DNA of 44,175 bases, taken from the IMG/VR virus record IMGVR_UViG_3300045988_062919. The stretch is one strand, 5' to 3'. Below are positions 3,243-40,746 of this stretch, in pieces (within the stretch, counting starts at the first letter, position 1; the number at the start of each line of letters is the position of its first letter). The notes below the pieces were generated by a model. It was not told the origin of the DNA. It searched no databases and was given only the letters and a program-made list of their open reading frames with translations. Made by a program: the position numbers and the translations under genes. The DNA comes from a virus.

Positions 3243-3719
3243 ATGAAATTTCAGAAATTTGTAAAGGCTCTTGGTTCTGACGGTATCGTCTACAATCGCA
3301 AGAACGGCGAACGCTAGCTCGCTTCCGACAAGGTGTTTATGAAAATCCCGGAGGATATTCGTAGCGTCACCTGCACCGAGGTTGCCGATATGCCCGAATT
3401 TGTAGAGAACATCATCAATTACGACAGCTTCACCGACCCCTGTGACCTCCACAAGGCTGTCATGCCGTATGCCGATGGCGTTATCAAGGATTGCGTTCGT
3501 ATCTACGCTACGGAGGGCGCACAGAACAAGGTCGCAATCGACAATAGTGCCTACGCCCTCATTGAGCGAAAAGACATCGTGGAAATGTTTGTCAAGCACA
3601 ACGCTGAGAAGGAAACCAGCGAGGGCAAGGCTCTGGTTATCAAGCGTCCTGCGAAGTTCTCCTCTGCCGAGAACGAAGAAGCACTTGGTCTGATTTTCCC
3701 GACCGATTACGAGGAATAA
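3243..3719 (+). CDS. Hypothetical protein interrupted by an in-frame TAG at 3315..3317
   Basis: GGAGG at 3229..3233 lies 9 nt upstream of ATG 3243. ORF 3333..3719 is in the same frame and has no RBS of its own. Confidence 0.5.
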
Positions 3720-3729
3720 GGAGGACGCT

Positions 3730-3831
3730 ATGTATATTGACCCTTTCGTTGCCGGTGTAATCACCACCATTCTGGTGGAACTGATGTTGATTGTCGGCCA
3801 CGCCATGTATGTGAGTTCTAAGAAGAAATAA
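3730..3831 (+). CDS. Small hydrophobic peptide (33 aa)
   Basis: GGAGG upstream of ATG 3730. Sequence MYIDPFVAGVITTILVELMLIVGHAMYVSSKKK has one predicted TM segment. Confidence 0.4.
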   Translation: MYIDPFVAGVITTILVELMLIVGHAMYVSSKKK

Positions 3832-3845
3832 GGAGGATAAAGACA

Positions 3846-4082
3846 ATGACAAGCAAAACCAAAGCTCAGTTGGAGCAGGAAATTAAAAACAGCCGTGAGC
3901 AGATCGAGTGTCTGAAATTAGAGCTGGAAAAGGCAAACCGTGTTGAAACGAAGGACGATGCCGCACAAGAACTTTATGAGGTGTATGAAGCCTATACAAA
4001 AGCCGGTTTCACTGAGGAACAGGCTTGGGAGCTTACGAAAATCATTGTGAACAATGGCACGACAAAGCGTGGCCTGTTTTAA
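3846..4082 (+). CDS. Hypothetical coiled-coil protein
   Basis: GGAGG RBS and tight packing with neighbouring genes. Confidence 0.6.
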   Translation: MTSKTKAQLEQEIKNSREQIECLKLELEKANRVETKDDAAQELYEVYEAYTKAGFTEEQAWELTKIIVNNGTTKRGLF

Positions 4083-4096
4083 GGAGGATAAAGACA

Positions 4097-4630
4097 ATGG
4101 CAAGAATCCCTATGACAAGCGGGTTTACTCTCATTCCCGAAGGAACCTATGTGTTCCGAGTATATGGTGCGACCTATGACGAGGAGTTTGGCAAGATCGA
4201 GGTAATGCTGGTGAACGCCGCTGGTATGACCCACACCGAGCGTTTTTCCATCAAAGACAAGAATGACGAGCTGAATGAAAAGGCTCTGAACGCTTTCTCC
4301 TACTTTGCCAAAACGGTAATGGGTGATTACACCTTGGAGGACATTGACCCCTCTGAGCTTATCGACCACTTCATCTGCGCCGAGGTCGTTCACACTAAGC
4401 TCCCGTCCAACAAAGACCCCAACAAGATGGTTACTTTCGCCAATTTTGGTGACAAGTCCCCGGCAGAATACTTCGACACTGAGCCTGTCGCTCGTGCTCT
4501 GACGCTTGGCAAAGAGGGGGCTACTGCTCCTGTTACCCCTAAAGCCACTGCCGCTCCTACCCCCTCTCCCACTCCTGCGGCGCAACCCGCAAAGGGGCTT
4601 GACCTTGACGCACTGCTCGGCGGTCTGTAA
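4097..4630 (+). CDS. Hypothetical protein, DUF669-like (recombination-module associated)
   Basis: AAGGAGG lies 8 nt upstream of ATG 4097. N-terminus FTLIPEGTYVFRV resembles DUF669 phage proteins. Low-complexity P/A/T tail. Confidence 0.55.
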   Translation: MARIPMTSGFTLIPEGTYVFRVYGATYDEEFGKIEVMLVNAAGMTHTERFSIKDKNDELNEKALNAFSYFAKTVMGDYTLEDIDPSELIDHFICAEVVHTKLPSNKDPNKMVTFANFGDKSPAEYFDTEPVARALTLGKEGATAPVTPKATAAPTPSPTPAAQPAKGLDLDALLGGL

Positions 4631-7398: not shown

Positions 7399-7449
7399 CT
7401 AATCATAAAAGGACAATAGATTGTCTTAATTAGATTGGGAGGTAATTTT

Positions 7450-7917
7450 ATGGTTCAAGAATATTGCCGGGGAGACATTTTCTTCATCACAGAAGGTACA
7501 CACACTGGCTCGGAGCAGAGCGGCGGCAGACCCGGTGTTATCGTCTCGAACGATCTCGGCAACAAGCACTCGCCCAATGTAGAAGTTGTATTCCTCACCT
7601 CACGAGAAAAGAAGCCCATGCCGACCCATGTGGAGGTGCTGTGCAAAGTTCCGTCTACTGCTCTCTGTGAGAACATTCAGACGGTCTCAAAAGAGCGGCT
7701 GGGCACTTTCATCCGCTCCTGCACTACGAGCGAAATGAAGAATATCGACCATGCGCTCCTATGTTCGCTCGGTCTTCACGCTCCTGCGGCTGTCGGGGGG
7801 GGGACTCAGGTTTCCACTTCTCCTTCGACAGAGGTTTCAAAGGCCGAAATCGAGCGGGATTTGTTCAAGAGTCTGTATGAACAGCTTTCAGACAAAGTGA
7901 TGGTGAGTAAACCTTGA
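7450..7917 (+). CDS. MazF/PemK (EndoA-like) endoribonuclease toxin domain with a ~45-aa C-terminal extension. No adjacent antitoxin ORF.
   Basis: RGDIFF...GSEQSGGRPGVIVSNDLGNKHSPNVEVVFLTS...PTHVEV...ENIQTVSKERL closely follows the MazF/EndoA pattern. GGGAGG RBS. Confidence 0.75.
   Translation: MVQEYCRGDIFFITEGTHTGSEQSGGRPGVIVSNDLGNKHSPNVEVVFLTSREKKPMPTHVEVLCKVPSTALCENIQTVSKERLGTFIRSCTTSEMKNIDHALLCSLGLHAPAAVGGGTQVSTSPSTEVSKAEIERDLFKSLYEQLSDKVMVSKP
7795..7803 (+). repeat. G9 homopolymer inside the C-terminal extension of the mazF-like gene
   Basis: Counted directly (encodes GGG in AAVGGGTQ). Confidence 0.9.
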
Positions 7918-8379
7918 ACACTGATGTAATGTTTAGTAGCAAAACCGATGATTGGGCAACACCACAAGATTTCTTTGATAAATTGGATTTTGAATTTCAG
8001 TTCACCCTCGACCCATGCGCCGATCTTCATAACCACAAGTGCGCTCGGTATTACAACCGGGAGCAGGACGGTCTAATTCATGATTGGGGGGGAACGAGTA
8101 TTCTGCAATCCCCCATACGGAAAAGAAATCGCAAAATGGGTTCAAAAATCTTTTGAGGAAAGTCGTAAGAAAAACACGCTCGTGGTTATGCTCATTCCAG
8201 CAAGAACTGACACAAAGTATTTTCACGACTTCATATACGGGAAGGCCGAGATAAGATTCATTCGTGGGCGGTTAAAGTTTGGAAATGCGAAAACCGCCGC
8301 TCCTTTCCCCTCCATGGTCGTGATATTCAGAAATGAGGAGGATTCCAATGACAGTAACACTCATACAGGCAACGCCTGA
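7914..8379 (+). pseudogene. Phage Dam-family DNA N6-adenine methyltransferase, split by a frameshift at a G7 tract (8086..8092)
   Basis: ORF 7914..8156 carries DDWATPQDFFDKLDFEFQFTLDPCA...LIHDWGG. ORF 8080..8379, in the +1 frame, carries RVFCNPPYG...MLIPARTDTKYFH. Removing one G gives a continuous HDWGERVFCNPPYG. Confidence 0.8.
8086..8092 (+). repeat. G7 homopolymer at the dam frame break
   Basis: Counted directly. Confidence 0.9.
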
Positions 8380-9289: not shown

Positions 9290-9447
9290 TGGACAAAAGC
9301 AATAAAATCTGTCCTCTATTCTACATTTGTCCCGAGTGCAATACTCTTGAGTCGTGTCTGTGCCGCAAAGAGGATTGCGCATGGTGGGTCGAGGATAAAC
9401 AGAAATGCGCTATTGCAGTAGGAGGTGAACGCAGTCGTGGCAAGTGA
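9286..9447 (+). CDS. Small Cys-rich protein (53 aa)
   Basis: CPLFYICPECNTLESCLCRKEDCAWW. It fills the gap before the primase gene. Confidence 0.4.
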   Translation: MMDKSNKICPLFYICPECNTLESCLCRKEDCAWWVEDKQKCAIAVGGERSRGK

Positions 9448-10960
9448 TAGAGAGCTTTTTGAACTCCGAAACGGAAGGGTCATTATGGACGAAGACCTAT
9501 CCGAAAAAATGTATATCATCAAGTCATATCACCCTGAGAAAGCCGATGAAACCAGTTCCGGGTTTGAATGGTCGGAAATGGGCATGGCAAACCTGTTTGG
9601 TATGCTCTACAACCGGGAAGCCCGATACTGCACAGAGCATAAGAGCTGGTACACCTACTTCGAGGGCGCATGGCGCAAAGACGAAGGGGCGATCCTTGTC
9701 TCTGAGAAAATCAAGGACTTTGTGCGGCTGATGATTCTCTACTGCGGGGAGATCGTGGATGATGAAATCCGAAAAGCCTACACCTCTTTTGTGAACAAAA
9801 TGGGTGACAGGCGCATGAGGGACAGAATACTCAAAGACGCTACAGGCGAGCTTCGTATCTCTGCCACTGAGTTTGACGCTGACCCATACCTTATAAACTG
9901 TCTGAACGGCACCTACTCCCTCCGGGATTTTTCTTTTCGGGAAGCTAAGTGGGATGATTTTCTCACCATGCAGACCAACTTCCGTCACACCGTCCGCAGA
10001 GACATCAAGTGCGACCGATGGGAACTGTTCATTGACGAGGTTACACAGGGCGATAAGGACAAGGCTGACTTCCTGCAACGCTCTCTCGGCTACTCTATCC
10101 TCGGCATGAGCAACGAGGAGTGTATGTTTATCCTGCATGGTAAAACGACCCGCAACGGAAAATCCACACTGCTCAACACGATTGAAACCATGCTTGGTGA
10201 TTACGCCAAGGTTGCACCTGTCGGTATGATCTGCCGGGGAGACAGGCAGAAGGACGCAGAAGCGGCTTCCCCTACCCTTGCTGGTCTAAAAGGCAAGCGG
10301 TTTGTTACCATGTCGGAAAGCAATGAGTACGGTAAACTGGACGAGGAGAAAATCAAGCAGTTTACAGGCGGTGAAGAAATCTCAGCTCGTGCGCTGTACC
10401 AGTCTGCGATTACTTTCAAGCCGCAATTCACGCTCTGGCTCTCCTGTAACGACCTGCCGATGGTAACAGACAAGAGCCTGTTCGCTTCCGAGCGTATCAA
10501 AGTGATTGAGTTCAACCGGCACTTCTCCCCCGCCGAACAGGACACGCACCTCAAAGACGAGCTGACTTCTCAGGAAGCCATGAGCGGCATTTTCATGTGG
10601 CTCGTGCGTGGGTACATCAAGTACAAAGAGAATGGTCTCACCATGTCAGAGCCGCTGAGGTCTGTTGTGGCGGAGTATGAGCGGGATAATGACCTTGTAC
10701 TCCAATTCCTCGAAAACCGCTGTGTGCGTGTGCCAGAGGACGAGCACAACCCGCTTGGGGAGAAGAACAAGCGCACGATAATTAAGGCCAAAGATCTCTA
10801 TCTGGCTTTCAAGATGTGGGCGAAATCTGAGGGTGCTTATGTGCTCTCTGCAAGAAAATTCAACTCTGAAATGGAGCGTCACCCCGAATGGTTTGACCGC
10901 AAATCGACTTCCAGCGGGTTCGTGATCTATTGGGGGTTGAAGCTCAAGGAGGTCGTGTGA
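9437..10960 (+). CDS. Phage/plasmid primase-helicase, P4/D5 family (SF3 NTPase). Start uncertain (9425, 9437 or 9485).
   Basis: D5_N-like region (DADPYLINCLNGTY), Walker A GKTTRNGKST, and FVTMSE.. / ..GGEEISARALY...FKPQFTLWLSCNDLP, typical of the primase C-terminal (P4) family. Confidence 0.8.
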   Translation: MASDRELFELRNGRVIMDEDLSEKMYIIKSYHPEKADETSSGFEWSEMGMANLFGMLYNREARYCTEHKSWYTYFEGAWRKDEGAILVSEKIKDFVRLMILYCGEIVDDEIRKAYTSFVNKMGDRRMRDRILKDATGELRISATEFDADPYLINCLNGTYSLRDFSFREAKWDDFLTMQTNFRHTVRRDIKCDRWELFIDEVTQGDKDKADFLQRSLGYSILGMSNEECMFILHGKTTRNGKSTLLNTIETMLGDYAKVAPVGMICRGDRQKDAEAASPTLAGLKGKRFVTMSESNEYGKLDEEKIKQFTGGEEISARALYQSAITFKPQFTLWLSCNDLPMVTDKSLFASERIKVIEFNRHFSPAEQDTHLKDELTSQEAMSGIFMWLVRGYIKYKENGLTMSEPLRSVVAEYERDNDLVLQFLENRCVRVPEDEHNPLGEKNKRTIIKAKDLYLAFKMWAKSEGAYVLSARKFNSEMERHPEWFDRKSTSSGFVIYWGLKLKEVV

Positions 10961-11289
10961 TGATTTCTCTCGGAAATTACTATCACTTTGCCGCAAGTGA
11001 AATCGAGTGTGTAGAGGTTTCTACTGTCAAAGCCGAATACCCCTATCGTATCACTGTCTATCTCAAAAGCGGTGCTTCTCGTTCTGTAAATTACAAGAAC
11101 GAGCAGAATCGCAACTCTGCGAGAGATAATCTCATTCGACAGATTGAGCATGAACGCAAGGCTGACTATGAACGCCTATACAATGCAGTAAGTCTTCTTA
11201 GTTATAATGTGAAAACCATCAATGGTAGACAGCTTCGCATTTGGAGACAGCTTCGAGACTTGCTGGGTGTCAAGATTACGGAGGAATAG
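10960..11289 (+). CDS. Hypothetical protein
   Basis: GGAGG RBS and ATGA-type overlap. The gene ends in TAG. Confidence 0.55.
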   Translation: MISLGNYYHFAASEIECVEVSTVKAEYPYRITVYLKSGASRSVNYKNEQNRNSARDNLIRQIEHERKADYERLYNAVSLLSYNVKTINGRQLRIWRQLRDLLGVKITEE

Positions 11290-11291
11290 AC

Positions 11292-11462
11292 ATGAAAGTA
11301 ACCAAATGCACTGGTGAGGGTTAAGGCTCTTGCAAAAGGTGTTCGGATAAAGGCAAATGGAACAGAATGTGGTGTTGTTTTCTATACAAAATAGATGGTT
11401 ACGAGGGGTGTTATTGCGCCGATTGTGTGAAAGAGATTGAAAAGGAAGGACAAAATGAATGA
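11292..11462 (+). CDS. Small Cys-rich protein interrupted by an in-frame TAA at 11322..11324
   Basis: MKVTKCTGEG-TAA-GSCKRCSDKGKWNRMWCCFLYKIDGYEGCYCADCVKEIEKEGQNE. The Cys-rich pattern continues across the stop in a single frame. Confidence 0.4.
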
Positions 11463-11678: not shown

Positions 11679-11784
11679 AAGTAGTTAAAGTAGTTCAAAT
11701 CTTGAATTTGCGTAAAAGTCCTCTATAAGGGGGTCTATATAGTAAAAGTTTACGCAAAAACCGATTTTTAACTACTTCAACTAC
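11679..11784. repeat. Nested-palindrome element, copy A (outer inverted repeat AAGTAGTTAAAGTAGTT / AACTACTTCAACTAC; inner inverted repeat TTTGCGTAAA / TTTACGCAAA)
   Basis: Read directly. Homologous to the copies at 16038..16146 and 38552..38687. Confidence 0.85.
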
Positions 11785-11854: not shown

Positions 11855-12457
11855 ATGGCAGTGAAGAAAAACCCCGATGGTGAGAACAAGCCGCAGGTGA
11901 TTAAGAAGAAGCCGAGGGGCGGTAACTCCCCTGTGATTGGTATGAATGGGTACGATTTGGAGCCGGGTGACAATACGAAGTATCTGCAAGACTCCATGTA
12001 CCTGATGAACTTGCCTGACATTGATTTACATGATGTAGAGCAAGTGACAAATCGACTGAATGAGTATTTTGAGTTCATGGCTTCCAGTGATATGAAACCT
12101 ACGGTTTCTGGTATGGCATTGGCGTTGAACGGTATGAGCAGACGGACTTTGATTGCCATTGTGAACGACTATGCCACTGGTGGGTCTGGATATAAGACTG
12201 CGTTGCCGCAGGAAGTAGCACTCGTAATAAAAAAAGCTCATAGAGTTATGGAGGTTCTTTGGGAGAATTACTCGCAAAACGGCAAGATCAATCCCGTCAT
12301 GGGTATCTTCCTCGGCAAGAACAACTATGGCTATCAGGACAAGACCGAATATGTTGTCACTCCGAATGTTCAGCAGGACAACGACTATGACCCCGACTCT
12401 ATCAGACAGCGATACCTTATCGACTCTGAAAGCGACTCCGACTCTGAAAGCGACTAA
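11855..12457 (+). CDS. terS: Terminase small subunit
   Basis: It sits at the head of the packaging/morphogenesis block. KPTVSGMALALNGMSRRTL resembles the TerS HTH region. Acidic SESDSDSESD tail. Confidence 0.6.
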   Translation: MAVKKNPDGENKPQVIKKKPRGGNSPVIGMNGYDLEPGDNTKYLQDSMYLMNLPDIDLHDVEQVTNRLNEYFEFMASSDMKPTVSGMALALNGMSRRTLIAIVNDYATGGSGYKTALPQEVALVIKKAHRVMEVLWENYSQNGKINPVMGIFLGKNNYGYQDKTEYVVTPNVQQDNDYDPDSIRQRYLIDSESDSDSESD

Positions 12458-12525: not shown

Positions 12526-12653
12526 ATTGGGGGCAGATCGTCCCCCGGTGGAGGTGGAGCCGGTGGAGCGTTGGCGGGTTTTTGGTTTTTCCCTATATAA
12601 TGTATAAGAGATAATGAACAATCCGAAAAAGATAAAATTTTTCTGAAAACCTC

Positions 12654-12682
12654 TTGACAATTCGGAAAAGCTGAATTATACT
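12654..12682 (+). promoter_or_regulatory. Sigma-70-type promoter of the accessory island (TTGACA, 17 nt spacer, TATACT)
   Basis: TTGACAATTCGGAAAAG closely resembles the -35 region of the promoter at 40747. Confidence 0.55.
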
Positions 12683-12737
12683 ATAATCGTAACAGGACAG
12701 CAAACAATCCGAATGAGATTATATGGAGGTTTTCAAA

Positions 12738-14611: not shown

Positions 14612-14619
14612 TACATATA

Positions 14620-14696: not shown

Positions 14697-15135
14697 GGGG
14701 GTATTCCCTATATACCCGGCTATTATATGGGCTTGTATGGCTTGCTATGGGCTTATATGCAAGGGCTTTATATAATGGGCTTTATATTGTGAGCGTTGCG
14801 TTATTGCGCGGGCTTGTTATGTTGTGCGCTTGTGTTCTTGCGTTTCTCTGTTATGTTCTTGTGTTATGGGCTTGTGTGTTGTGTTCTTGTGTGCGCTATG
14901 GGATAATATAGCGGCTTGCGCTGTCCTGCATTGTGGGCGGTTTGTTTGGTGTCGTTGGGGTGTCCTCTATTGGGTATTATGATAATACTATTTTTAGAGT
15001 TGTGTTTTTCTGTTTTGATAGTGCTATCAAGTGGGCGGGGGTTCAATGATAGCGGAGCGAATAGCCCCGGAGGGCATACCCCCGGAGGGGGACAGCGACC
15101 CGCCGCACGAGCCGCAGGGAGTGGCTTGAGTAGCC
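14697..15135 (+). other. Non-coding, strongly G+T-skewed degenerate-repeat region followed by a GC-rich structured segment
   Basis: No RBS-preceded ORF. Contains repeated TATGGGCTT-like and TGTTCTTG-like units and palindromes at 14974..14988 and 15015..15030. Confidence 0.6.
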
Positions 15136-15243: not shown

Positions 15244-15459
15244 ATGGCAGTTTTGAACGATATTGAAATTGATGTGAAGACCCTGTGCGTGCAGAACCGC
15301 ACCACTCAGGAGCAAATCGCAAAGGCTGTTGGCACAACGGGTCAGTATGTCAACCGGGTCATTCACAAAGAGGACGGTCTTATCAATCGCACTTTCATCA
15401 ACATCATGGAAGCTCTTGGTTACGACATCAAACTGACTTATGTTCCACGAGAACCGTAA
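15244..15459 (+). CDS. Xre-family helix-turn-helix DNA-binding protein
   Basis: TQEQIAKAVGTTGQYVNRVIH HTH pattern. GGAGG RBS. Confidence 0.7.
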   Translation: MAVLNDIEIDVKTLCVQNRTTQEQIAKAVGTTGQYVNRVIHKEDGLINRTFINIMEALGYDIKLTYVPREP

Positions 15460-15474
15460 TAGGAGGTGAACCAC

Positions 15475-16047
15475 ATGAAAGTGGGTTATGTGCGGGTGAG
15501 CACCGTTGAGCAAAACCTTGCTCGGCAGTTGGAGCTGATGAAGACCCTCGGTGTGGAGAAAATCTACTGTGACAAAATGAGTGGGAAAAACACAGAGCGT
15601 ACCGAGTTTAAGGAAATGATGGAGTTTCTGCGAGAGGGTGACACCCTGTATGTGGAGTCCTTCTCCCGGCTTTCCAGAAGCACCCTCGATTTCTTAAACA
15701 CTGTGAGCAGGTTACAGGCCAAGAGTGTGAATCTTGTGTCCGACAAGGAAAAGATGGATATGTCCACTCCGCAAGGTAAGTTTATGGTGACGGTGTTTGC
15801 CGCACTCTCCGAGCTGGAACGAACCAGTATGCTCGAGAGACAGCGGGAGGGTATCGAGATTGCCAAGGCCGAGGGGAAATACAAAGGGCGAAAACCCATT
15901 CCCGCCAACGAAAAGTTCTTTGCGGTGGCAAACGCTTGGGCGGGAGGTAAGATTGCTCTCAAAGACGCAATCCGGGAGTCTGGTATGTCCTCCTCCACTT
16001 TCTTTCGCAAATGCAAGCAGTTTGAAATCAGCAAAAGAAGTAGTTAA
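15475..16047 (+). CDS. Small serine recombinase (resolvase/invertase, Hin/Gin-like) with a C-terminal HTH
   Basis: MKVGYVRVSTVEQN (catalytic Ser motif), LYVESFSRLSRS, ALSELERTSMLERQREG, about 190 aa. AGGAGG lies 8 nt upstream of the start. Confidence 0.85.
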   Translation: MKVGYVRVSTVEQNLARQLELMKTLGVEKIYCDKMSGKNTERTEFKEMMEFLREGDTLYVESFSRLSRSTLDFLNTVSRLQAKSVNLVSDKEKMDMSTPQGKFMVTVFAALSELERTSMLERQREGIEIAKAEGKYKGRKPIPANEKFFAVANAWAGGKIALKDAIRESGMSSSTFFRKCKQFEISKRSS

Positions 16048-16146
16048 AGTAGTGGAAAATCAGGTTTTGCGTGTAACTTCCTCTTAGCATACGCATATAT
16101 AGCAAAAGTTTACGGAAAAATCGAAAATCAACTACTTTAACTACTT
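16038..16146. repeat. Nested-palindrome element, copy B. It overlaps the last codons and the stop codon of the serine recombinase gene.
   Basis: AAGTAGTTAAAGTAGT ... AACTACTTTAACTACTT, with inner arms TTTTGCGTGTAACTT / AAGTTTACGGAAAA. Confidence 0.85.
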
Positions 16147-16163: not shown

Positions 16164-16739
16164 ATGGGGCGATACGATAATTTTCACAACACTAAGAATA
16201 TTGAAAAGGCGCAGAAAAAGCTCGATAAGCTCTTGAGCAAGCGAAAGCCCGACCAGTATCAAATTGATCTGGCAAGGGAAGCTCTCGACAATGCGAAATT
16301 GTTTGAAAGCTGTCAGATTTTTAAGAGCTTCAACGGTCGTGCGCCGAATGAGAACATTATGTTCAGTGACGATAACCGAGTGATATGGTTCATCAAGTAT
16401 CTCATTCCCTATGACGAAATCACTTCGTATTCCATCGTGGAGAATGTGGTACAAAAAGCTCAAACCCAGACCAAGAGCAAAGGCGTTATCTCACGAGCTA
16501 TCATCGGAGGAGCGATTGCAGGCGGGGTTGGTGCGGTCGTTGGGGCGGCTTCTGCGGGGTCACAGTCTCAAACAACCTACTACACCGAGGGCGAAGGATT
16601 CTTCTTGCAAATTTTCACCAAGGGCGGAGACCGATATAGCTGTCATATCGAAAGTGACGGTTTTATTTCAAACAAAGTACACCCGAAATGGCTTGAGCTT
16701 GGAACGAAGTTGCAATCCATCATTGACGGGAAGGTGTAA
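16164..16739 (+). CDS. Hypothetical protein with a central glycine-zipper segment (moron-like position between the recombinase and terL)
   Basis: GGGAGGG RBS. Sequence IIGGAIAGGVGAVVGAASAG. Confidence 0.6.
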   Translation: MGRYDNFHNTKNIEKAQKKLDKLLSKRKPDQYQIDLAREALDNAKLFESCQIFKSFNGRAPNENIMFSDDNRVIWFIKYLIPYDEITSYSIVENVVQKAQTQTKSKGVISRAIIGGAIAGGVGAVVGAASAGSQSQTTYYTEGEGFFLQIFTKGGDRYSCHIESDGFISNKVHPKWLELGTKLQSIIDGKV

Positions 16740-16752
16740 AATTGATTTAGAA

Positions 16753-16807
16753 TGGCGCATGATTGCGAGAGCGTAATGCTCAAACGGTCATGCGTCATTT
16801 TTCTTTT
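16753..16807 (+). promoter_or_regulatory. Terminator-like leader RNA motif, copy 1 (immediately upstream of terL)
   Basis: GGCGCATGA...TCATGCGTC stem with one G-U pair, an inner hairpin GAGC-GTAAT-GCTC, and a T-run ending at the terL RBS. Confidence 0.55.
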
Positions 16808-16816
16808 GGAGGTATT

Positions 16817-18457
16817 ATGCGAAAGTTACTTGAGACAATTTTTGAAAAAATCAAAAAGAGCCATGAGTACCAGTCCATGGAAGACCTGTACTACATGAGC
16901 AAGGAAGCCATGAAAACCGACAGCGACCTTGGCGTAGAATTTTTGAAGCTACTGTCAGCAGAATGTGAGAAAACCATGCGCAATACCGCCATATCCGGGG
17001 AGCAGGTGCGGCTGGTTTATGATTTGCACAAGCGTGTATGCCTGACCGCCGCTCCTTACGATTTTGACAGCTACCTCCTCTATGTGGAGTGGAACCGAGA
17101 CCCGGAGAAAAAGTTCTACCCTCCCCGCAGGAAGGTGCTGAAACGGGTGGTAGACGCTCTGCAAGAGCTGGCAGACGATAAACTGGATTTGTTGGCGGTC
17201 TCTCTTCCACCGGGCGCAGGAAAAACCACTCTGGCTATCTTCTACCTCACATGGCTCGGCGGGAAAATTCCCAATGACCCTATCCTGACCGGCTCGCACT
17301 CCAACAGCTTTGTCCGAGGGGTATACGATGAATGTCTGCGCATATTTGACCGCAACGGAGACTATCTGTGGCACGATGTTTTCCCCGACATCAAGGTGTC
17401 CAACACCAACGCAAAAGACTGCCGCATTGACCTTGACAAGAGACAGCGTTTTGAGACCTTGGAGTTCACCTCTATCGGAACTGGCAATGCTGGTCTGTAT
17501 CGTGCGGCTACTCTGCTCTACTGTGATGACTTGGTATCTGGTATTGAAGTTGCTCTGTCCAAGGAGCGATTGGACAAGCTGTGGGAGACCTACACCACTG
17601 ACTTGAGACAGCGTAAAATCGGAGATCACTGTAAAGAACTTCACATTGCAACCCGTTGGTCTGTCCACGATGTCATTGGTCGGCTTGAGCGGGAGTATAT
17701 CGACAGTGACCGGGCAAAATTCATTGTGATTCCCGCTCTTGATGAAAACGATGAATCCAATTTTGACTATGCTTATGGCGTGGGGTTCAACACAAGATTT
17801 TATCACGAGCAGAGGAACATCATGGACGATGTGAGCTGGCGAGCACTGTATATGAACGAGCCGATTGAGCGTGAGGGCTTGGTTTATGCACAAGACGAGC
17901 TTCGCCGCTACTTCGAGTTGCCGAAGGAAGACCCTGACGCAATCATTGGTATCTGCGACACCAAGGACAAAGGAGCGGACTACGCTTTCCTGCCGGTGGC
18001 GTATGTGTATGGGCAGGATTATTATATTGACGATTGCGTGTGCGACAATGGGCTACCCAATATCGTGGACGCTCGGCTGACGGAAATCCTTATGCGGGAC
18101 AAGGTGAAATCCTGCCGGTTCGAGTCTAATTCCGCTGGGCGGCGGGTCGCTGAGAAAATACAGGAGGAAGTAAAGAAAAAAGGCGGTATCACGCACATCA
18201 CCACCAAGTTCACCACTGCTAACAAGGAAACGAAAATCATCGTAAACAGCGCATGGGTCAAGGAACACTGCCTGTTCAAAGACGCTTCTCTCTACCAGCG
18301 GAAGTCAGACTACGGCAAGATGATGGATATGCTCTGCTCTTACACAATGGCTGGTAAGAATAAGCACGATGATGTTCCCGATGGCATGGCAATGCTGGCT
18401 GAATATGCCCAAAGCCTGAGCGGACAAAAGGTGGAAGTTTTCAAACGACCTTGGTAA
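16817..18457 (+). CDS. terL: Terminase large subunit
   Basis: Walker A LPPGAGKTT, Walker B LLYCDD, nuclease-domain-like C-terminus. GGAGG RBS. Confidence 0.85.
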   Translation: MRKLLETIFEKIKKSHEYQSMEDLYYMSKEAMKTDSDLGVEFLKLLSAECEKTMRNTAISGEQVRLVYDLHKRVCLTAAPYDFDSYLLYVEWNRDPEKKFYPPRRKVLKRVVDALQELADDKLDLLAVSLPPGAGKTTLAIFYLTWLGGKIPNDPILTGSHSNSFVRGVYDECLRIFDRNGDYLWHDVFPDIKVSNTNAKDCRIDLDKRQRFETLEFTSIGTGNAGLYRAATLLYCDDLVSGIEVALSKERLDKLWETYTTDLRQRKIGDHCKELHIATRWSVHDVIGRLEREYIDSDRAKFIVIPALDENDESNFDYAYGVGFNTRFYHEQRNIMDDVSWRALYMNEPIEREGLVYAQDELRRYFELPKEDPDAIIGICDTKDKGADYAFLPVAYVYGQDYYIDDCVCDNGLPNIVDARLTEILMRDKVKSCRFESNSAGRRVAEKIQEEVKKKGGITHITTKFTTANKETKIIVNSAWVKEHCLFKDASLYQRKSDYGKMMDMLCSYTMAGKNKHDDVPDGMAMLAEYAQSLSGQKVEVFKRPW

Positions 18458-32616: not shown

Positions 32617-34551
32617 ATGAGCTGGGCAGAAGCAAAATGGGTGGTAGATAATATCCTGCAAAAGACAGGACAGGCACCCAACAACATGAGAGCGTTTACC
32701 GCTTTCGCAAAATCCAGCACCACCATTGGGCTGAGATTTCTGGAACCCGAAGACAGCTATGACAGCGCAGATAATCTGCTCTGTTCGGTCGGCGGCGTAA
32801 TGATTCGCATGGGCGAAGATGGCTACCCCGCCAGCACCACCGAAGGTACGCTGGTTATTGACAACAAAGAGCTTGGGAAATATGTGACCGAGGAGTACAC
32901 CGTGAGCAGTCTGACCGAGGGGAAGACCTACTACTTCTCCGCTTTCCCGTATTCCTCTCAGGGCGTGTATAACCTGTCGAGCAATGAGAAAAATCGGGCG
33001 AGTGCCGCTCCTGCCGATGGGGAAACGGCGAATGTCACCATCAACATTGACAATGACAGCGCATTTAACAGCGTCACTATCACCTGCGTGGACGAGACGG
33101 ACGGGCAGTACACCAAGACCGCCACGCTCACCAAGACGCAGAAAAAGGCTTCTTTCACCGTCCCCATCGGACACACCTATCACATCGAGTACGGTGCGGA
33201 GGACGGGTATTCCAAGCCTGAGAACACCGAAGCCAAGGTGTCTGTGGCGGGTGCTGTATCGAACTATGAAGCAACCTACTACTATTTCACCGCCACCATT
33301 GATGTCACCTACCCGGCAGGAGCGACCTGTACCTGCTCCCTCGATGGCACGACCTATACCGCAACCGGCACCAGCGGCAGGTATCAGTTCAAGGTACACA
33401 AGGTCGGCACATGGACTGTGAAAGCGACCAGCGGCGGCGAGTCCGCTTTCGAGCAGGTTGTAATCACCTCGGACGGGCAGAGCGAAACGGTGGAGCTGTC
33501 TTTTGTGAAAATCTTCGGTATCAGCCGGGATATTAAAGCGTCCTCCCCTGTGTGGGCGAGAACCGACATGGCAGTGGGCATGACCGCCACCGCTTCTATC
33601 GGCACAAACGCTGGTCACAGCGATTTCGATGATGTCATGCCTTGGAAGGGCATGGTGCGGGAAACCCTCCCTGCCAACGATGTGATGGTGAAAATCCCGA
33701 AATTTTACTACCGCCGCTATCGTGAGGGGACGGTTGAGCATATTCAGATCGCAGACAAGCCTACGGCTGGTTTCTCGGTACACCCCCTGTTCAATCATGC
33801 AGGTCGGGAGTGCGACCACGCCTATGTGGGTGCGTACAAAACTTCCAGCAACAATAAATCCGTCTCCGGGGCAAGTCCGCAAGCGTCACAGACAAGAGCC
33901 ACTTTCCGCAGTAACGCCAAGGCGAAGGGCGCAGGATGGAGCCTGATTGACATTGCGGCGGTATCTGCCATTCAAATGCTCATGCTGGTGGAGTTTGCAA
34001 ACAACAATGTGCAGAGCGTTATCGGCAGAGGATATTGTGACGGAGACAGCGGCCCGCTGAGAACCGGGTCTTGCAACAGCGTTCCCAACCTCACCGGCAG
34101 ACCTTCTGGCACAGACGGTAAGACCGGCGTTGTCTACAGAGGTATCGAGGACTTCTGGGGCAATGTGTGGGAATGGGTCGATGGCGTGAACTGGAACGAC
34201 GGCACTTACTATATCTGCAACGACCCTTCCAAGTACGCTGACGATACTGCAACCGGCTACACCCAGCTTTCCTTCAAAGGAGCGACAAACTGGGGTAGCT
34301 CCTATATCACTGAGGAGGGTCTGGACACCGGGGCAAATCCCCATGTCATGCTTCCTTCTGCGGCTGGTAGCGGCAGTGAGTCCACCTATATGTGTGACGC
34401 TTGTTGGAGTAGCACAGGATGGCGAGTGTTCCCACGCGGCGGTGATTGGGCTTATGGGTCGTCTTGCGGTCTCTTTGCGGCTACTTTGTACACCGCTTCG
34501 TCTAATTCCTACACGAACGTTGGCTCTCGCCTGCTTTATATCCCCTCCTGA
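32617..34551 (+). CDS. Receptor-binding tail fibre protein with a C-terminal FGE-sulfatase/C-type-lectin-fold domain (the DGR target)
   Basis: GIEDFWGNVWEWVDG motif. The C-terminal ~40 codons are the DGR variable repeat. Confidence 0.8.
   Translation: MSWAEAKWVVDNILQKTGQAPNNMRAFTAFAKSSTTIGLRFLEPEDSYDSADNLLCSVGGVMIRMGEDGYPASTTEGTLVIDNKELGKYVTEEYTVSSLTEGKTYYFSAFPYSSQGVYNLSSNEKNRASAAPADGETANVTINIDNDSAFNSVTITCVDETDGQYTKTATLTKTQKKASFTVPIGHTYHIEYGAEDGYSKPENTEAKVSVAGAVSNYEATYYYFTATIDVTYPAGATCTCSLDGTTYTATGTSGRYQFKVHKVGTWTVKATSGGESAFEQVVITSDGQSETVELSFVKIFGISRDIKASSPVWARTDMAVGMTATASIGTNAGHSDFDDVMPWKGMVRETLPANDVMVKIPKFYYRRYREGTVEHIQIADKPTAGFSVHPLFNHAGRECDHAYVGAYKTSSNNKSVSGASPQASQTRATFRSNAKAKGAGWSLIDIAAVSAIQMLMLVEFANNNVQSVIGRGYCDGDSGPLRTGSCNSVPNLTGRPSGTDGKTGVVYRGIEDFWGNVWEWVDGVNWNDGTYYICNDPSKYADDTATGYTQLSFKGATNWGSSYITEEGLDTGANPHVMLPSAAGSGSESTYMCDACWSSTGWRVFPRGGDWAYGSSCGLFAATLYTASSNSYTNVGSRLLYIPS
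34418..34537 (+). repeat. DGR variable repeat (VR)
   Basis: Gap-free 120-nt alignment to the TR. All 19 differences fall at TR adenines. Confidence 0.9.
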
Positions 34552-34555
34552 GGGT

Positions 34556-34576
34556 GTGGGGGATTCCCTCCCCCAC
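34556..34576 (+). other. GC-rich hairpin downstream of the VR (DGR target-recognition hairpin/cruciform candidate)
   Basis: GTGGGGGA-TTCCC-TCCCCCAC: 8-bp stem, 5-nt loop, 19 nt after the VR end. Confidence 0.6.
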
Positions 34577-34629
34577 ATAAGTGGGTGAACACACCATATT
34601 GAAAATCGAAACACGCTAAGGCGAACAGT

Positions 34630-34749
34630 AAAAGCGAGTGTTCCAACACGGCGGTAATTGGAATAATGGGTCGAATTGCGGTCTCTTTACGGCTAATTTG
34701 AACAACACTTCGTCTAATTCCAACACGAACATTGGCTCTCGCCTACTTT
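34630..34749 (+). repeat. DGR template repeat (TR)
   Basis: Non-coding copy of the VR. Adenine-rich, with AAT/AAC at the positions that vary in the VR. Confidence 0.9.
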
Positions 34750-34864
34750 TGTTAAACGGTAAAAATCATCAAATACTGTTTCGCCGTACCCATTGGTAAA
34801 AAATAGTTTGGAGGGACAGGGTTAGTAGGTTCACTCTCGAAAGCCCTGTAAGAAACAAAAGCAG

Positions 34865-35953
34865 ATGAAAAGGTTTGGATTCCTCTATGAACGGATAGTT
34901 TCAGTGGAAAATTGCAGACTGGCTATCCTCAACGCTTCTCAAAAGAAGAAAAAGCGAAAAATGGTGAAAGAAGTCCTTGATAATTTGGAGTATTACGCCA
35001 ACGACCTTTCCGAGCGAATGAGCCGCATGGATTTTCTCTCCCCATATAAGACCCGTATTATCAAGGACGGGTTATCTGGAAAAGAACGGGAACTGCAAGT
35101 CCCGGCGTTCTACCCCGACCAGTGCGCACACCACGCCATTATGCAGATTCTCAAGCCGATTATTGAGAAATCGTCCTACCGATGGAGTTGCGCCAATATC
35201 CCCAACCGGGGCATTGACCTTGCTTGCAAGGGTGTGGAGAGAGCCACTGTGCGGGACAGGAAACACGCAAAATATTGCGTGAAAATGGACATTAGCAAGT
35301 TCTACCCATCTATTCCTCATGGCAAGCTGAAAGCCCGACTGCGGGAGAAAATCAAAGACGAAAAGGCTTTGCAAATCATCTTCAAGGTGATTGACTCCCA
35401 CAATCCGGGGCTTCCCATCGAGAACTATACTTCCCCTTGGCTGGCAGAACTATACCTGCAACCGCTGGATTACCTTATCAAGCAAAAGCACCGAATACGG
35501 CACTATATCCGCTACGCTGACGATCTGGTGCTGATAGACAGCAACAAACGAAAGCTGAGGAAAGCTCTTCACGATATTTTCCTGTTTGTGGAGGAGCTGG
35601 GTATGACGGTGAAACACGACTACCAGTTGTTTCGTATTCAGCCATACTGCAAGGAAAGGACAGGCCGCAGGGGACGAAAGATAGATTTCGTAGGGAGGTG
35701 TTTCGGAATTGGTTTTACCACCATCCGAAAGAGAAGGGCGTTGGCACTTATGCGGCAGAGCAGGTTTATTCAAAAGCTACAGCGGCAGAACCGGCCTGTC
35801 TCATACAGAATGGCTTCCGGGTTTCTCTCCCGGTGCGCCTGTTTCAAGCACACCAACTCATACGCCATGAAGAAAAAGTACTACGAAACGGTCAACATCA
35901 AAAAGTTAAAGGAGGTTGTCAGCAATGAGAGTAAGAGGAAATGTCTCGCCTAA
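34865..35953 (+). CDS. DGR reverse transcriptase
   Basis: RT motifs including IRYADDLVL (YADD box) and GLPIENYTSPWLAELYL (resembles the DGR-type GxxxSQ motif region). Adjacent to the TR. Confidence 0.85.
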   Translation: MKRFGFLYERIVSVENCRLAILNASQKKKKRKMVKEVLDNLEYYANDLSERMSRMDFLSPYKTRIIKDGLSGKERELQVPAFYPDQCAHHAIMQILKPIIEKSSYRWSCANIPNRGIDLACKGVERATVRDRKHAKYCVKMDISKFYPSIPHGKLKARLREKIKDEKALQIIFKVIDSHNPGLPIENYTSPWLAELYLQPLDYLIKQKHRIRHYIRYADDLVLIDSNKRKLRKALHDIFLFVEELGMTVKHDYQLFRIQPYCKERTGRRGRKIDFVGRCFGIGFTTIRKRRALALMRQSRFIQKLQRQNRPVSYRMASGFLSRCACFKHTNSYAMKKKYYETVNIKKLKEVVSNESKRKCLA

Positions 35954-37963: not shown

Positions 37964-38262
37964 TGGCAAGGCGCAGACGGAAGAAGCAAAAAGCCCCTTG
38001 GGAATTTTCCAAGAAAATTGTGGTCGTAGTATTCTCCATCAACATTGTGGTGATTGTGTTCTCCATCATTATGATGTGGCGCACCTGCGACCTCTCTCCG
38101 ATGGCATACCTCATTCCAGCAGTTGCCGCAGAGACCGCAACAGGGACAGGCTTCTACTACTCCAAGGCCAAGGTTGAGAACCGTATAAAGCTGATGAAGC
38201 ATTACAACATCGAACCGTCCGAACAATCTTTCAACGAACAAGGAGGATATTACAATGGTTGA
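37963..38262 (+). CDS. Holin-like membrane protein
   Basis: Basic N-terminus followed by two hydrophobic segments. ATGA-style overlap with the endolysin stop. Confidence 0.5.
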   Translation: MARRRRKKQKAPWEFSKKIVVVVFSINIVVIVFSIIMMWRTCDLSPMAYLIPAVAAETATGTGFYYSKAKVENRIKLMKHYNIEPSEQSFNEQGGYYNG

Positions 38263-38557
38263 TCTTACCCCTATCATCACCGCAGTTCTGACCCTCATTT
38301 TCTCGCTGATTACCGCTTTCCTCATTCCCTATATCAAGACCAAGGTGAGTGCGGAACAATTCGCCACCATCAAGCTGTGGGTGCAGGTCGCTGTACAGGC
38401 GGCAGAAATGCTCTATGTCGGTAGCGGCAGAGGAGAGGAAAAGAAGAAATATGTGATTGAGTTTCTGAACAGCAAGGGGTTCACGCTGAACGCAGAGGAG
38501 ATTGAAAACCTCATTGAATCCGCTGTCTTGGAGCTGAAACAGCCGCAGGTAAAGTAG
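38255..38557 (+). CDS. Holin (LL-H-like family)
   Basis: N-terminal TM segment IITAVLTLIFSLITAFLIPYI, and YVIEFLNSKG, typical of LL-H-type holins. Its stop codon lies inside repeat element C. Confidence 0.6.
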   Translation: MVDLTPIITAVLTLIFSLITAFLIPYIKTKVSAEQFATIKLWVQVAVQAAEMLYVGSGRGEEKKKYVIEFLNSKGFTLNAEEIENLIESAVLELKQPQVK

Positions 38558-38687
38558 TTAAAGTAGTTAAAGTAGTTAAAGTAGTTAAAGTAGTTAAAAA
38601 TCGGTTTTTGCGTAAACTTTCTCTATATACACGCGTACTATGCAAAAGTTACACGCAAAAACCAAAGAACAACTACTTTAACTACTT
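38552..38687. repeat. Nested-palindrome element, copy C, with a 5x tandem GTAGTTAAA array (38554..38598) in its left arm
   Basis: Read directly. The right arm AACTACTTTAACTACTT is at 38671..38687. Confidence 0.9.
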
Positions 38688-38723: not shown

Positions 38724-38754
38724 AGAGGAGGTAGGCGTTTAACCTACCTCCTCT
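38724..38754 (-). terminator. Rho-independent terminator of the integrase gene (12-bp perfect stem)
   Basis: AGAGGAGGTAGG-CGTTTAA-CCTACCTCCTCT. On the minus strand it is followed by UGUUUUGUUUGU. Confidence 0.7.
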
Positions 38755-40697: not shown

Positions 40698-40746
40698 GAT
40701 GATTCTCCTTTCACAAATTTTAATTTAGATTTTTTGAATTTGCCTA

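Follow-up and report, generated by a model that had tools for sequence, protein, structure and literature searches.

Hundreds of phages from gut Clostridia carry, at matching operon boundaries, members of a large and apparently undescribed family of nested-palindrome elements, and three such members lie in the viral genome analyzed here (IMGVR_UViG_3300045988_062919; 44,175 nucleotides; hereafter, the window). The outer arms of each element carry short direct repeats (i.e., iterons), and the pattern of their conservation across lineages shows that they are read as sequence and not as a helix. The same pattern points to a predicted reader, namely, a sequence-specific DNA-binding protein encoded in the phage genome. 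We tentatively interpret the elements as candidate protein-bound boundary or operator sites that gate transcription between operons and secondarily act as recombination joints, an interpretation that we consider possible rather than probable.

Architecture of the three elements

The initial annotation had described three nested palindromes, and these were recovered at the positions given below, at about 105 bp each and with the nested architecture that it had proposed. None of the three is assigned to a strand.

Element A, 11679 to 11784: outer arms 11679 to 11695 and 11770 to 11784; A/T spacers 11696 to 11706 and 11761 to 11769; inner arms 11707 to 11719 and 11744 to 11760; center 11720 to 11743
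Element B, 16038 to 16146: outer arms 16038 to 16053 and 16130 to 16146; inner arms 16065 to 16079 and 16104 to 16120; center 16080 to 16103
Element C, 38552 to 38687: core dyad 38579 to 38687; outer arms 38579 to 38595 and 38671 to 38687; spacers 38596 to 38604 and 38662 to 38670; inner arms 38605 to 38619 and 38644 to 38661; center 38620 to 38643

Each element is composed of two inverted half-units placed across a center of variable length. A half-unit contains two 7-bp iterons with a 9-bp spacing (AAGTAGT-NN-AAGTAGT), an A/T tract, a further conserved box TTTTGCGT(R)TAAC that differs in sequence from the outer iteron, and a TATA-like box. Across the family, the center ranges from 23 to 35 bp and the whole element from 103 to 116 bp, and a GC core (CGCGCG or GGGGG) is common in the center. 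The outer 14-mer GTAGTTAAAGTAGT (two mismatches or fewer) has 10 matches in the window versus 0.13 expected; all 10 lie inside A, B, and C, and this count was reached in 0 of 100 shuffles. Tandem expansion of the left outer repeat gives copy C 5.4 units of the 9-mer TAAAGTAGT (38550 to 38598), on this side only.

The arms are interchangeable, as had been proposed: the right arm of A and the left arm of C are 92% complementary over 52 nt. The center box (CCTCT...TATAG) is co-oriented in A, B, and C, in agreement with the initial annotation. The A/T spacers are not co-oriented: on the coding strand, both spacers of A are T-rich, and both spacers of B and of C are A-rich. Over its whole length, A is closer to the reverse complement of C (51.2) than to C itself (45.3), and full-length B and C are co-oriented (56.1 versus 48.5). 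The two spacers of any one element are systematically non-complementary and position-specific.

Genes flanking the elements

The genes around A, B, and C match those described in the initial annotation, which had placed the elements at module boundaries. The features concerned are as follows.

9425 to 10960, plus strand: D5/P4-family primase-helicase, 0.7 kb upstream of A; candidate iteron-binding initiator
11855 to 12457, plus strand: small terminase (terS) of the P22 gp3 family, always directly downstream of A
15244 to 15459, plus strand: XRE-like HTH gene HTH71 (71 aa), conserved upstream of B
15466 to 16047, plus strand: small serine recombinase (resolvase/invertase type), abutting B
16164 to 16739, plus strand: first gene past B, a variable slot
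16763 to 18457, plus strand: large terminase (terL), start of the structural block
38255 to 38557, plus strand: holin, the last late gene, with its stop codon within the repeat array of C
38739 to 40184, minus strand: large serine integrase, with a terminator hairpin at 38724 to 38754
Near 38815 to 38825: putative attP crossover, outside C

The gene order is primase, small open reading frames (ORFs), A, and gp3-family terS at the first boundary; small serine recombinase, B, a 191-aa ORF, and terL at the second; and holin, C, and the minus-strand large serine integrase at the third. The recombinase stop codon (16045 to 16047) lies inside the left arm of B, and the ribosome-binding site (RBS) of the next gene starts approximately 6 nt beyond the right arm, ahead of the ATG at 16164. 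In near-identical relatives, unrelated genes are substituted in this slot (16164 to 16739). The terS product scored 28.9 bits against the Pfam model GP3_package, slightly under the cut-off; it has 3546 homologues, most of them with PF16677, one of which is labeled "DNA-packaging protein" by NCBI, and its orthologue in the sister family described below scored 40.8 bits against the same model. The genome is a circular assembly, and its GC-skew profile tracks gene orientation only.

Distribution of the family and lineage-specific iterons

Absence from all relatives, which the initial annotation had named as the mark of a chance local duplication, was not observed. The AAGTAGT-type element was found in 163 IMG/VR phage loci at three fixed syntenic positions (i.e., ahead of terS of the P22 gp3 type, ahead of the terL block, and where the lysis genes end), and it is also carried by prophages of Roseburia, Dorea, Criibacterium, Clostridium, and Oscillospiraceae. 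Candidate lysogens include Dorea ammoniilytica Sanger_02 (NZ_JAOQJV010000002.1, at approximately 138 to 142 kb), Criibacterium bergeronii CCRI-22567, and Anaerotruncus sp. DFI.9.16. Orthologues of A lie 150 nt or less upstream of terS in 71 loci, those of B number about 63 copies, and those of C have either holin and integrase or lysin and holin as their neighbors. Genomes carry one to three elements; one lineage lacks B, which is thus dispensable there, and on one contig (L142) terS alone is flanked by two elements. A megablast search with 20 kb against cultured phages gave no matches, and a literature search by sequence did not find the element.

The elements sit between co-directional genes, with the upstream stop codon in the left arm and the downstream RBS following within 2 to 6 nt or after about 20 nt. 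At all three positions, the center box is co-oriented with transcription. Each element forms an island of >90% identity amid modules that are 50 to 60% identical. Half-units without a partner made up 5 of 422, all of them in contigs that otherwise showed no sign of the family. The same 9-mer repeat also flanks hairpins in Prevotella and Marseilla (Bacteroidota) chromosomes.

More distant phages carry a sister family with the same architecture and a GGTGAGT-NN-GGTGAGT outer repeat (at least 121 loci), located before gp3-type terS and at the lysis/integrase end. None of 284 loci, a count that includes two loci each from five sister-family contigs, mixes AAGTAGT and GGTGAGT. All copies within a genome share one iteron type, the type differs between phage lineages, and in both families the two direct repeats of one arm stay mutually identical. 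One iteron type per genome and a different type in each lineage would be the signature of a genome-encoded sequence-specific binder, and such a concerted, genome-wide switch implies a trans-acting reader. This lineage-specific behavior of the outer arms had been missed in the initial annotation.

Transcription signals and RNA structure

No T-run terminator was called in A, B, or C by a terminator scan, in agreement with the initial annotation; on each strand, the inner stem gives way to a run of A. When -35 and -10 hexamers 16 to 18 bp apart were required, no credible sigma-70 promoter was found inside the three elements: the best matches reached only 9/12 and borrowed non-conserved flanking bases (11662 and 16022), and the TTGCGT and TATA boxes of the elements are 10 to 11 bp apart. 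True sigma-70 promoters are present elsewhere in the genome (40747 and 12654). An ECF-type promoter (AAC-N16-CGT) was also considered by eye and fits the CGCGCG-centered copies only, not A.

The predicted folds are stable on both strands (-31 to -51 kcal/mol; z-scores, -4 to -9), as is trivially true of any palindrome, and the two strands are equal in stability. Arm complementarity was 18.1 within an element versus 20.8 between elements (permutation p = 1.0). No compensatory changes were seen between the arms: at the variable positions 6 and 7, each arm changes without regard to the other, with 6 double changes at position 6 versus 7 expected. A.A and U.U mismatches occur at position 6 in about half of the elements. 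No G.U versus A.C bias was detected in the arms, and an Rfam covariance-model search of the elements gave only sub-threshold miRNA-like hits (E about 0.4). The lack of compensatory changes, the lower complementarity within than between elements, and the absence of strand bias do not support the earlier suggestion of a double-stranded RNA (dsRNA) processing site, insofar as such a site is defined by structure only.

Mosaic joints at the elements

At least two independent events have left mosaic breakpoints precisely at the right edge of B. In two independent groups, sequences are 98 to 99% identical across the left flank and all of B and show no identity from the right arm and RBS onward. One hybrid combining the left part of B with the right part of A was also found (L118). 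The breakpoints and the hybrid lend real support to the module exchange proposed in the initial annotation, at a minimum as an effect that the elements have. Since its conservation far exceeds that of the flanking genes, the element may serve as a homologous-exchange joint for modules, and we regard this as a secondary role.

The initial annotation had also suggested a search for alternative junctions; the A-B cassette was inverted or deleted in none of about 30 assemblies. In comparisons of prophage and phage forms, homology ends at ...TTTGGTGGAG, approximately 130 bp past C, which stays intact; this phage/host junction rules out an attP inside C. Three further candidates were rejected. An apparent excised mini-circle (3300029381_000158; L118/L204) is a recombinant, since its two HTH genes differ and no repeat period is present; a putative satellite (L002) arose by a deletion that joined terL to the lysin; and the variable region left of A is no element-mediated joint, since its breakpoint lies 225 bp upstream of the element.

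Candidate binding proteins

Several phage proteins were considered as readers of the iterons. HTH71 was rejected since its close homologues occur in phages without the motif within 4 kb and since it is absent from sister-family loci. The small serine recombinase does not track the motif, as resD-type enzymes occur with both iteron types. The immunity region contains TTGACAATTCGCAAAAG-type boxes and no GTAGT, which excludes CI/Cro operators. Within the family, the HTH of TerS does not co-vary with the motif: its predicted HTH helix (assigned by eye from the alignment) and basic N terminus vary (RRTL, RRRL, RQWL, and others), in contrast to the constant iteron. The C-terminal domain of the primase-helicase varies as well (67 to 95%) and the motif does not; the domain is uninformative on motif variants. 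A very conserved 201-aa early protein (4025 to 4630) looks SSB-like with an acidic tail rather than like a specific binder. Resemblances to hix half-sites, dif/dif_SL arms, RTP Ter sites, Rok AACTA motifs, and REP GTAG, as judged by inspection, fail in spacing or orientation.

Possible functions

On the basis of the iteron comparison, each element may be a cis-acting DNA site for a phage-encoded protein, and the resulting nucleoprotein complex would gate RNA polymerase passing between co-directional transcription units. The gated junctions would be those from the replication genes to terS, from the terS/accessory cassette to the terL structural block, and from the lysis end to the integrase or host DNA. 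These junctions are too tight to accommodate an independent promoter or terminator. Such a mode of action would be comparable to that of multi-copy operators, such as the SPBRE-MrpR system of SPbeta and the stoperators of L5-like mycobacteriophages. Several observations argue against gating, however. The variable length of the center (23 to 35 bp) is at odds with a rigid complex across both halves, even though no half stands alone in the family. The non-complementarity and position specificity of the spacers are not predicted by a plain operator model. B is dispensable in one lineage, the element lies between lysin and holin in some others (i.e., inside the expected late operon), and C in the window has no downstream gene to gate. 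The 9-mer-flanked hairpins of Prevotella and Marseilla chromosomes are not explained by a phage-encoded binder, and HTH71, the recombinases, and the CI operators neither match nor track the motif. A more ambitious version, which we consider rather improbable, is an undescribed phage genome-punctuation system in which a protein reads lineage-specific iterons on obligate dyads at operon borders, times the late and lysis genes, and provides joints for module swapping. In such a system, the gates could open as replication titrates the binder, and temperate Clostridia phages would possess an integron-like exchange grammar.

Other readings give the elements a role in replication, RNA processing, or packaging. 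As origin-like sites, their iterons would be bound by the D5/P4-family primase-helicase or a partner, the inverted sets would direct head-to-head helicase loading at a TATA-rich center that melts easily, and the extra copies would be secondary origins or initiator-bound fork barriers. This is a doubtful reading. In its favor, the closest cultured homologue of the primase is that of Lactobacillus phage A2 (31% identity), which likewise encodes a P4/D5-family primase-helicase and has an annotated rep_origin just past the primase gene (AJ251789/NC_004112). That origin follows the same design, with inverted sets of short direct repeats (10-bp iterons as doublets 12 bp apart, plus a single copy) and an A/T-rich center. 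In the elements too, short direct-repeat arrays flank an A/T-rich region, and the region downstream of the primase gene showed no other iteron cluster. The primase-helicase ranks among the best-conserved proteins of the family (80 to 98%), with a clean split between iteron types (59 to 63%), and one initiator can have two binding regions per genome, as shown by SPP1 G38P, which binds the origin-like regions oriL and oriR (PMC5737612). However, the A2 origin is approximately 240 bp long, contains a single iteron kind, is a single-copy locus, and abuts the primase gene, whereas the elements are 105 bp long, have two box types (the inner box being unlike the outer iteron), are present in three copies per genome, and frequently carry a GC core. 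Moreover, A is tied to terS (150 nt or less) and not to the primase gene, which lies 0.7 to 3.4 kb away with variable genes between; variation in the primase C-terminal domain is not mirrored by the motif; and the co-orientation of the center with transcription is left unexplained. At the RNA level, the elements would form imperfect hairpins of approximately 45 bp in polycistronic mRNA that are cut by host RNase III or act as exonuclease barriers, uncoupling the stability of neighboring cistrons, as in the dsRNA idea of the initial annotation. Early mRNAs of T7 and SP82/SPO1 contain several such sequence-similar RNase III hairpins with internal loops between cistrons, and the T7 and SP82 sites are sequence-conserved too. 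The elements are alike in being several similar long hairpins with internal loops between the cistrons of operons. The tight fit of stop codon and RBS suggests that B and the lysin/holin copy are probably transcribed, the folds are stable, and the obligate dyad, variable loop, and constant internal loops suit a hairpin; a universal host enzyme would also explain why no phage protein tracks the element. We nonetheless consider this unlikely. There is no compensatory covariation even though flanking proteins have diverged to 50 to 60% identity, neither a G.U bias nor a difference in stability between strands is seen, and Rfam gives no match. Unlike the T7, SP82, and SPO1 hairpins, the elements have individually conserved repeat units; the repeats within an arm are kept identical and switch together between families, neither of which a helix needs, and the one-sided tandem expansion cannot pair. 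Small-terminase (pac-like) sites, in which the 9-bp-spaced iterons would wrap a gp3-type TerS ring, with A as the packaging start and B and C as extras, are improbable. TerS rings recognize short, repeated boxes that lie close to the terS gene itself (e.g., SPP1 pacL/pacR, lambda cosB, and P1 pac hexamers), and A lies 150 nt or less upstream of gp3-family terS in 71 and 77 cases of the two families (148 of 148 classified). TerS identity also splits by iteron type (50 to 98% versus 39 to 44%), and terS alone stands between two elements in L142. On the other hand, the TerS HTH helix (by eye) and basic N terminus vary widely against an invariant iteron in the AAGTAGT family, three sites per genome, of which two are distant from terS, make no sense for packaging, and known pac sites are not perfect dyads.

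The remaining readings concern DNA mobility. A selfish or passive repeat, either a MITE-like one or a functionless linker homogenized by homologous recombination between phages, is very improbable. The elements do have terminal inverted repeats and the size of a MITE, form >90% identity islands between modules that are 50 to 60% identical, and coincide at their edges with breakpoints, and similar repeat-flanked palindromes occur in Bacteroidota chromosomes. The MITE suggested in the initial annotation is not supported, however, given the absence of empty sites among 175 elements with homologous flanks, of target-site duplications at the flanks of A, B, and C, and of solitary halves or scattered copies. 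Positions are fixed by strict synteny, element sequences are position-specific (i.e., orthologous), no transposase gene is present among the annotated ORFs of the genome, and the concerted switch of iteron type implies a trans-acting reader. The least probable reading is that of sites (res/six/hix-like, or attC-like when folded) for the adjacent serine recombinases, which would excise, invert, or exchange the bracketed cassettes. A small serine recombinase adjoins B in 27 of 29 cases and does not adjoin A, C is located beside the large serine integrase, and A is inverted relative to B by spacer polarity. The length of approximately 105 bp, within the size range of res/six sites, the several sub-sites, and the A/T tracts are also consistent with this reading, as are the breakpoints exactly at the right arm of B and the single B/A hybrid. 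Against it, the recombinases beside B belong to three families that are about 30% mutually identical and share the same invariant boxes, and resD-type enzymes that are 68 to 74% identical occur with both iteron types. One lineage has the recombinase without B, and attP lies approximately 130 bp to the right of C. In addition, no inverted or deleted cassettes were found in about 30 assemblies, there is no second element behind the swapped gene, and a central crossover dinucleotide inside a dimer-sized inverted repeat is lacking. The recombinase-site role that the initial annotation had listed is thus not supported.

Comparison with known phage intergenic repeats

Hardly any experiments have addressed the temperate phages of gut Clostridia, abundant as they are. 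In hundreds of their genomes, the element family stands at the same three junctions, with a conservation above that of any neighboring gene. With at least two iteron dialects, it provides a concrete handle for finding its regulator or initiator, and it may help to delimit operons in metagenomic phage contigs and to account for the positions of mosaic joints. If gating of late transcription or origin marking is correct, the elements would be a target for the control of prophage induction in cultured hosts (e.g., Dorea, Criibacterium, and Anaerotruncus).

For the gating interpretation, the nearest parallels are repeats that act as operators. Stoperators of L5-like mycobacteriophages are 13-bp asymmetric sites present in at least 24 copies. 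The SPBRE repeats in intergenic regions of the Bacillus prophage SPbeta are binding sites of the master repressor MrpR; they have a 15-bp motif, lie in promoter regions, and number about 10 copies (PMC10516654). The elements resemble both in that a conserved motif recurs in several intergenic regions of one temperate phage and that motif and lineage co-vary. In SPBRE and stoperators, a phage-encoded protein reads the motif and controls prophage transcription, as the predicted binder would do here; the elements differ in being 105-bp obligate dyads with two kinds of boxes in one to three copies.

As for the secondary role in module exchange, lambdoid phages have conserved intergenic boundary or linker sequences at which recombination shuffles modules. 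The PeSL cassettes of T4-type phages (PMC2839356 and PMC4122927) are likewise short, conserved intergenic stem-loop cassettes between modules, and recombination shuffles these modules with breakpoints that coincide with the cassette. In contrast to the elements, which have neither, PeSLs contain a strong sigma-70 early promoter and a working terminator; they also occur in dozens of copies in hyperplastic regions, whereas the elements number three per genome at fixed positions and carry lineage-specific iterons.

Three nested palindromes at operon borders

The genes around three nested-palindrome elements (A, upstream of terS; B, before the terL block; and C, at the lysis end) are arranged as follows.

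40747 and 40904: perfect sigma-70 promoters of the immunity region
After the immunity region: early, recombination, and replication genes, ending with the primase-helicase
9425-10960: D5/P4-type primase-helicase, upstream of A
11679-11784: element A
11855-12457: small terminase (terS), P22-gp3 family, directly after A
12654 and 15184: sigma-70 promoters of the small ORFs after terS; terminator at 14619
15244-15459: XRE-like HTH gene, 71 aa (HTH71)
15466-16047: small serine recombinase, its stop codon within the left arm of B
16038-16146: element B
After B: 191-aa ORF (RBS starting about 6 nt and ATG 18 nt past B)
Between this ORF and C, in order: terL, structural genes, diversity-generating retroelement (DGR), lysin, and holin (stop codon in C)
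38552-38687: element C
After C, opposite strand: integrase terminator and large serine integrase

The borders named in the initial annotation (i.e., early genes/terS, recombinase/terL block, and lysis/integrase) are all seen in this gene map, and every one of the three elements contains the nested palindrome described there (outer arms, A/T spacers, inner arms, and centre; mean column identity, 74%). With up to 2 mismatches allowed, the outer 14-mer GTAGTTAAAGTAGT has 10 matches, all inside A, B, or C (0.13 expected; 0 of 100 shuffles reached 10). The A right arm, described as the reverse complement of the C left arm, is 92% complementary to it across 52 nt. In copy C, the left side alone has an array of 5.4 tandem 9-mers. 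The centre box CCTCT...TATAG follows the direction of transcription at all three positions, so that the common orientation proposed initially holds for the centre; it does not hold for the A/T spacers. On the coding strand, A has T-rich spacers on both sides, and B and C have A-rich ones on both; because of this polarity, A fits the reverse complement of C better than C itself, while B and C are co-oriented. Since the spacers of one element are not mutual inverted copies, self-complementarity is below average. Terminator and promoter scans detected neither a T-run terminator, as previously noted, nor a credible sigma-70 promoter inside any element.

A large family with two iteron types

An exact 16-mer scan of IMG/VR yielded at least 118 stretches, and the matches listed included 84 complete elements (63 distinct). 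A profile search recovered 113 copies at first and 175 later, and a gapped pattern located the element in prophages of Roseburia, Dorea ammoniilytica, Criibacterium bergeronii, Clostridium, Oscillospiraceae, and Erysipelotrichaceae. The element, whose absence from relatives had been considered, is therefore present in IMG/VR phages and in prophages and is a large family rather than a local duplication. By context, 71 copies of the window's type (AAGTAGT) lie directly upstream of terS, approximately 63 between HTH/recombinase genes and the terL block, and approximately 24 at the lysis end (the holin/integrase gap or, in another lineage, the gap between lysin and an 88-aa holin). Same-position copies of different phages are more alike than the copies of one genome; thus, the triplication is ancient, and the copies at each position are orthologues. 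Four conserved boxes are nearly invariant, while the flanking proteins are often just 50 to 65% identical.

In a fecal phage scaffold (primase, 62% identical), 27 nt separate a 109-bp element from the gp3-type terS downstream. This element matches the window's family in architecture, centre (TATACGCGCGTATATAG), and inner box type (TGCCTATAAC), whereas its outer repeats are GGTGAGT-TA-GGTGAGT rather than AAGTAGT-TA-AAGTAGT. A GGTGAGT-variant scan returned at least 120 stretches, and this sister family comprises at least 121 loci (L261, at 3738-3846, and at least 120 IMG/VR loci, L262-L381; primase approximately 60% and terS approximately 42% identical). Among the matches listed (121 loci), 77 copies are upstream of terS and 8 beside an integrase; one contig carries two, the first ahead of terS and the second downstream of the DGR, the lysin, and an 86-aa gene. 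None of the 284 loci examined among the matches listed contains both iteron types (five sister-family contigs gave two loci each). In both families, the two direct repeats of an arm are mutually identical, which a helix would not need; together with the one-sided expansion in C, this indicates iterons that are read unit by unit by a same-genome factor.

Several related sequences were also observed. L261 has an additional GGTGAT-AAA-GGTGAGT doublet at 3663-3680, approximately 58 nt upstream of its element. L002 (IMGVR_UViG_3300007802_000118) derives by deletion from a related phage: the terL N terminus, Walker A motif included, is joined to the lysin C terminus (608-1420); the whole structural region is gone and all three elements are kept. 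Chromosomes of Prevotella, Marseilla, and Tannerellaceae contain palindromes flanked by tandem copies of the phage 9-mer GTAGTTAAA, with an unrelated inner hairpin, amid housekeeping genes (Fur, signal peptidase, PNPase, and MatE; L119, L121, L122, L127, L129-L131, L133, L139, L143, and L144).

Candidate roles of the element

Long hairpins are predicted for the elements, as for any palindrome, and an RNA hairpin or RNase III site was among the roles first proposed. Across 57 distinct elements, own-arm complementarity was 18.1 versus 20.8 with the right arms of other elements (permutation p = 1.0), and no preference for G.U over A.C was found. Variable positions 6 and 7 of the outer repeat changed independently in the two arms, predicted stability was equal for the two strands (-38.0 versus -38.3 kcal/mol; p = 0.66), and an Rfam search of the elements gave no family match. 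It is therefore the sequence, and not the pairing, that is constrained, and we regard an RNA-level site as unlikely. A MITE-like origin, also suggested initially, is not supported: 175 elements with homologous flanks included 0 empty sites, target duplications were not visible, and there were no solitary halves (5 of 422 half-units were partnerless, on contigs without other signs of the family). Selfish or linker-only sequence is a very unlikely description. The proposed recombinase site is less probable still. Although 27 of 29 B copies abut a small recombinase gene, the boxes are invariant despite three recombinase arrangements/families (190 aa, left; 251 aa, right; 191 aa, approximately 300 bp right), one lineage has the HTH and recombinase genes without B, resD-type enzymes 68 to 74% identical occur with both iteron types, and the A-B cassette is inverted or deleted in 0 of approximately 30 assemblies. 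Nor is attP inside C: the inferred crossover falls at ...TTTGGTGGAG, approximately 130 bp right of C, which is intact in integrated relatives. Comparison of phage-form and integrated relatives (L117, L132, and L008) places this crossover at approximately 38796-38825, in the 3'-terminal part of the large serine integrase ORF; the adjoining host sequence resembles the 3' terminus of a tRNA or tmRNA gene.

The element is a conserved, obligately dyad-symmetric DNA element with lineage-specific iterons and a second box, set tightly between co-directional genes at each of three operon borders. We propose that a phage-encoded protein binds it and that the bound element would act on transcription across these borders. 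At copy B and the lysin/holin copy, the gap is too tight for a promoter or terminator apart from the element; therefore, polymerase would have to pass through the element or start in it. The unit upstream of B has its own constitutive-looking promoter at 15184, from which transcription would otherwise continue into the late genes. Such a gating or operator function is the reading we favour, although only tentatively. In SPbeta, SPBRE elements in intergenic regions are bound by the repressor MrpR (PMC10516654). They are a precedent for intergenic elements under a phage regulator. Stoperators provide a second precedent for an operator. HTH71 was rejected as the binder, since homologues 62 to 65% identical occur with no motif within 4 kb and sister-family loci contain no homologue of it; CI/Cro operators differ in appearance from the element boxes.

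An origin-like site, a somewhat improbable role, would resemble the phage A2 origin, in which inverted iteron doublets surround an A/T-rich centre right after a homologous primase; in SPP1, G38P binds two regions (PMC5737612). The primase-helicases are 80 to 98% identical within an iteron type and 59 to 63% across types, and their C terminus is merely 67 to 95% conserved. TerS identity is 50 to 98% within and 39 to 44% across types, and several further early proteins also separate by type. The predicted TerS HTH helix, located by eye in the alignment, differs among members of the family; recognition by TerS as a pac site seems quite unlikely. Most of the 3546 homologues of the window's small terminase carry PF16677. 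A literature search by sequence found the element in none of the papers searched. Multi-copy cis elements of phages are already known, while this architecture, its distribution, and the two iteron dialects appear undescribed.

Recombination joints

In two independent phage groups, 98 to 99% identity extends through the recombinase gene and all of B and is lost at the right outer arm/RBS (element position 100 to 104 of 109 in both), with unrelated first genes beyond. One contig is a B-left::A-right hybrid with its crossover within the shared TTTTGCGTGTAACTTCCTCT; a mini-circle was rejected, and it is a recombinant between lineages. These breakpoints agree with the module-exchange linkers of the initial annotation; the variable region left of A, however, stops 225 bp short of the element, and thus not all nearby joints use it. 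That the elements serve as joints for module exchange, comparable to the T4 PeSLs, is supported as a by-product of whatever primary function they have. Phages otherwise 94 to 99% identical (L066 and L073) have unrelated sequence at 10966-11454, a replaceable segment of approximately 0.5 kb from the primase gene to a conserved 47-aa ORF upstream of A.

Other features of the genome

The assembly is circularly closed (44,120 bp), with an exact 55-nt terminal direct repeat at 1-55 and 44121-44175. The sigma-70 promoter regions at 12650-12683 and 40743-40776 are 82% identical across 34 nt (TTGACAATTCG.AAAAG...TATA.T); a unit within the A-B cassette probably has its operator in common with the rightward promoter of the immunity region. 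A small ORF of the cassette contains a short imperfect tandem repeat (TGTGTTCTTGTGT; period, 13 to 15) at 14839-14892. Among the early genes are a PemK/MazF-like endoribonuclease toxin (7435-7917), with no obvious antitoxin in the annotation, and a Dam-type adenine methyltransferase in two overlapping ORFs (7914-8156 and 8080-8379) matching the N- and C-terminal halves of the Pfam model; a frameshift, whether genuine or programmed, or an error in sequencing could account for the split. The DGR (32617-35953) is complete, and one is present in sister-family phages too (L279). Its parts in the window are as follows.

34422-34537: variable repeat, 3' end of a 644-aa ORF
34634-34749: template repeat, 86% identical to the variable repeat
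34782-34868: Rfam RT-18/RT-17 RNA, directly upstream of the reverse transcriptase
34865-35953: reverse transcriptase
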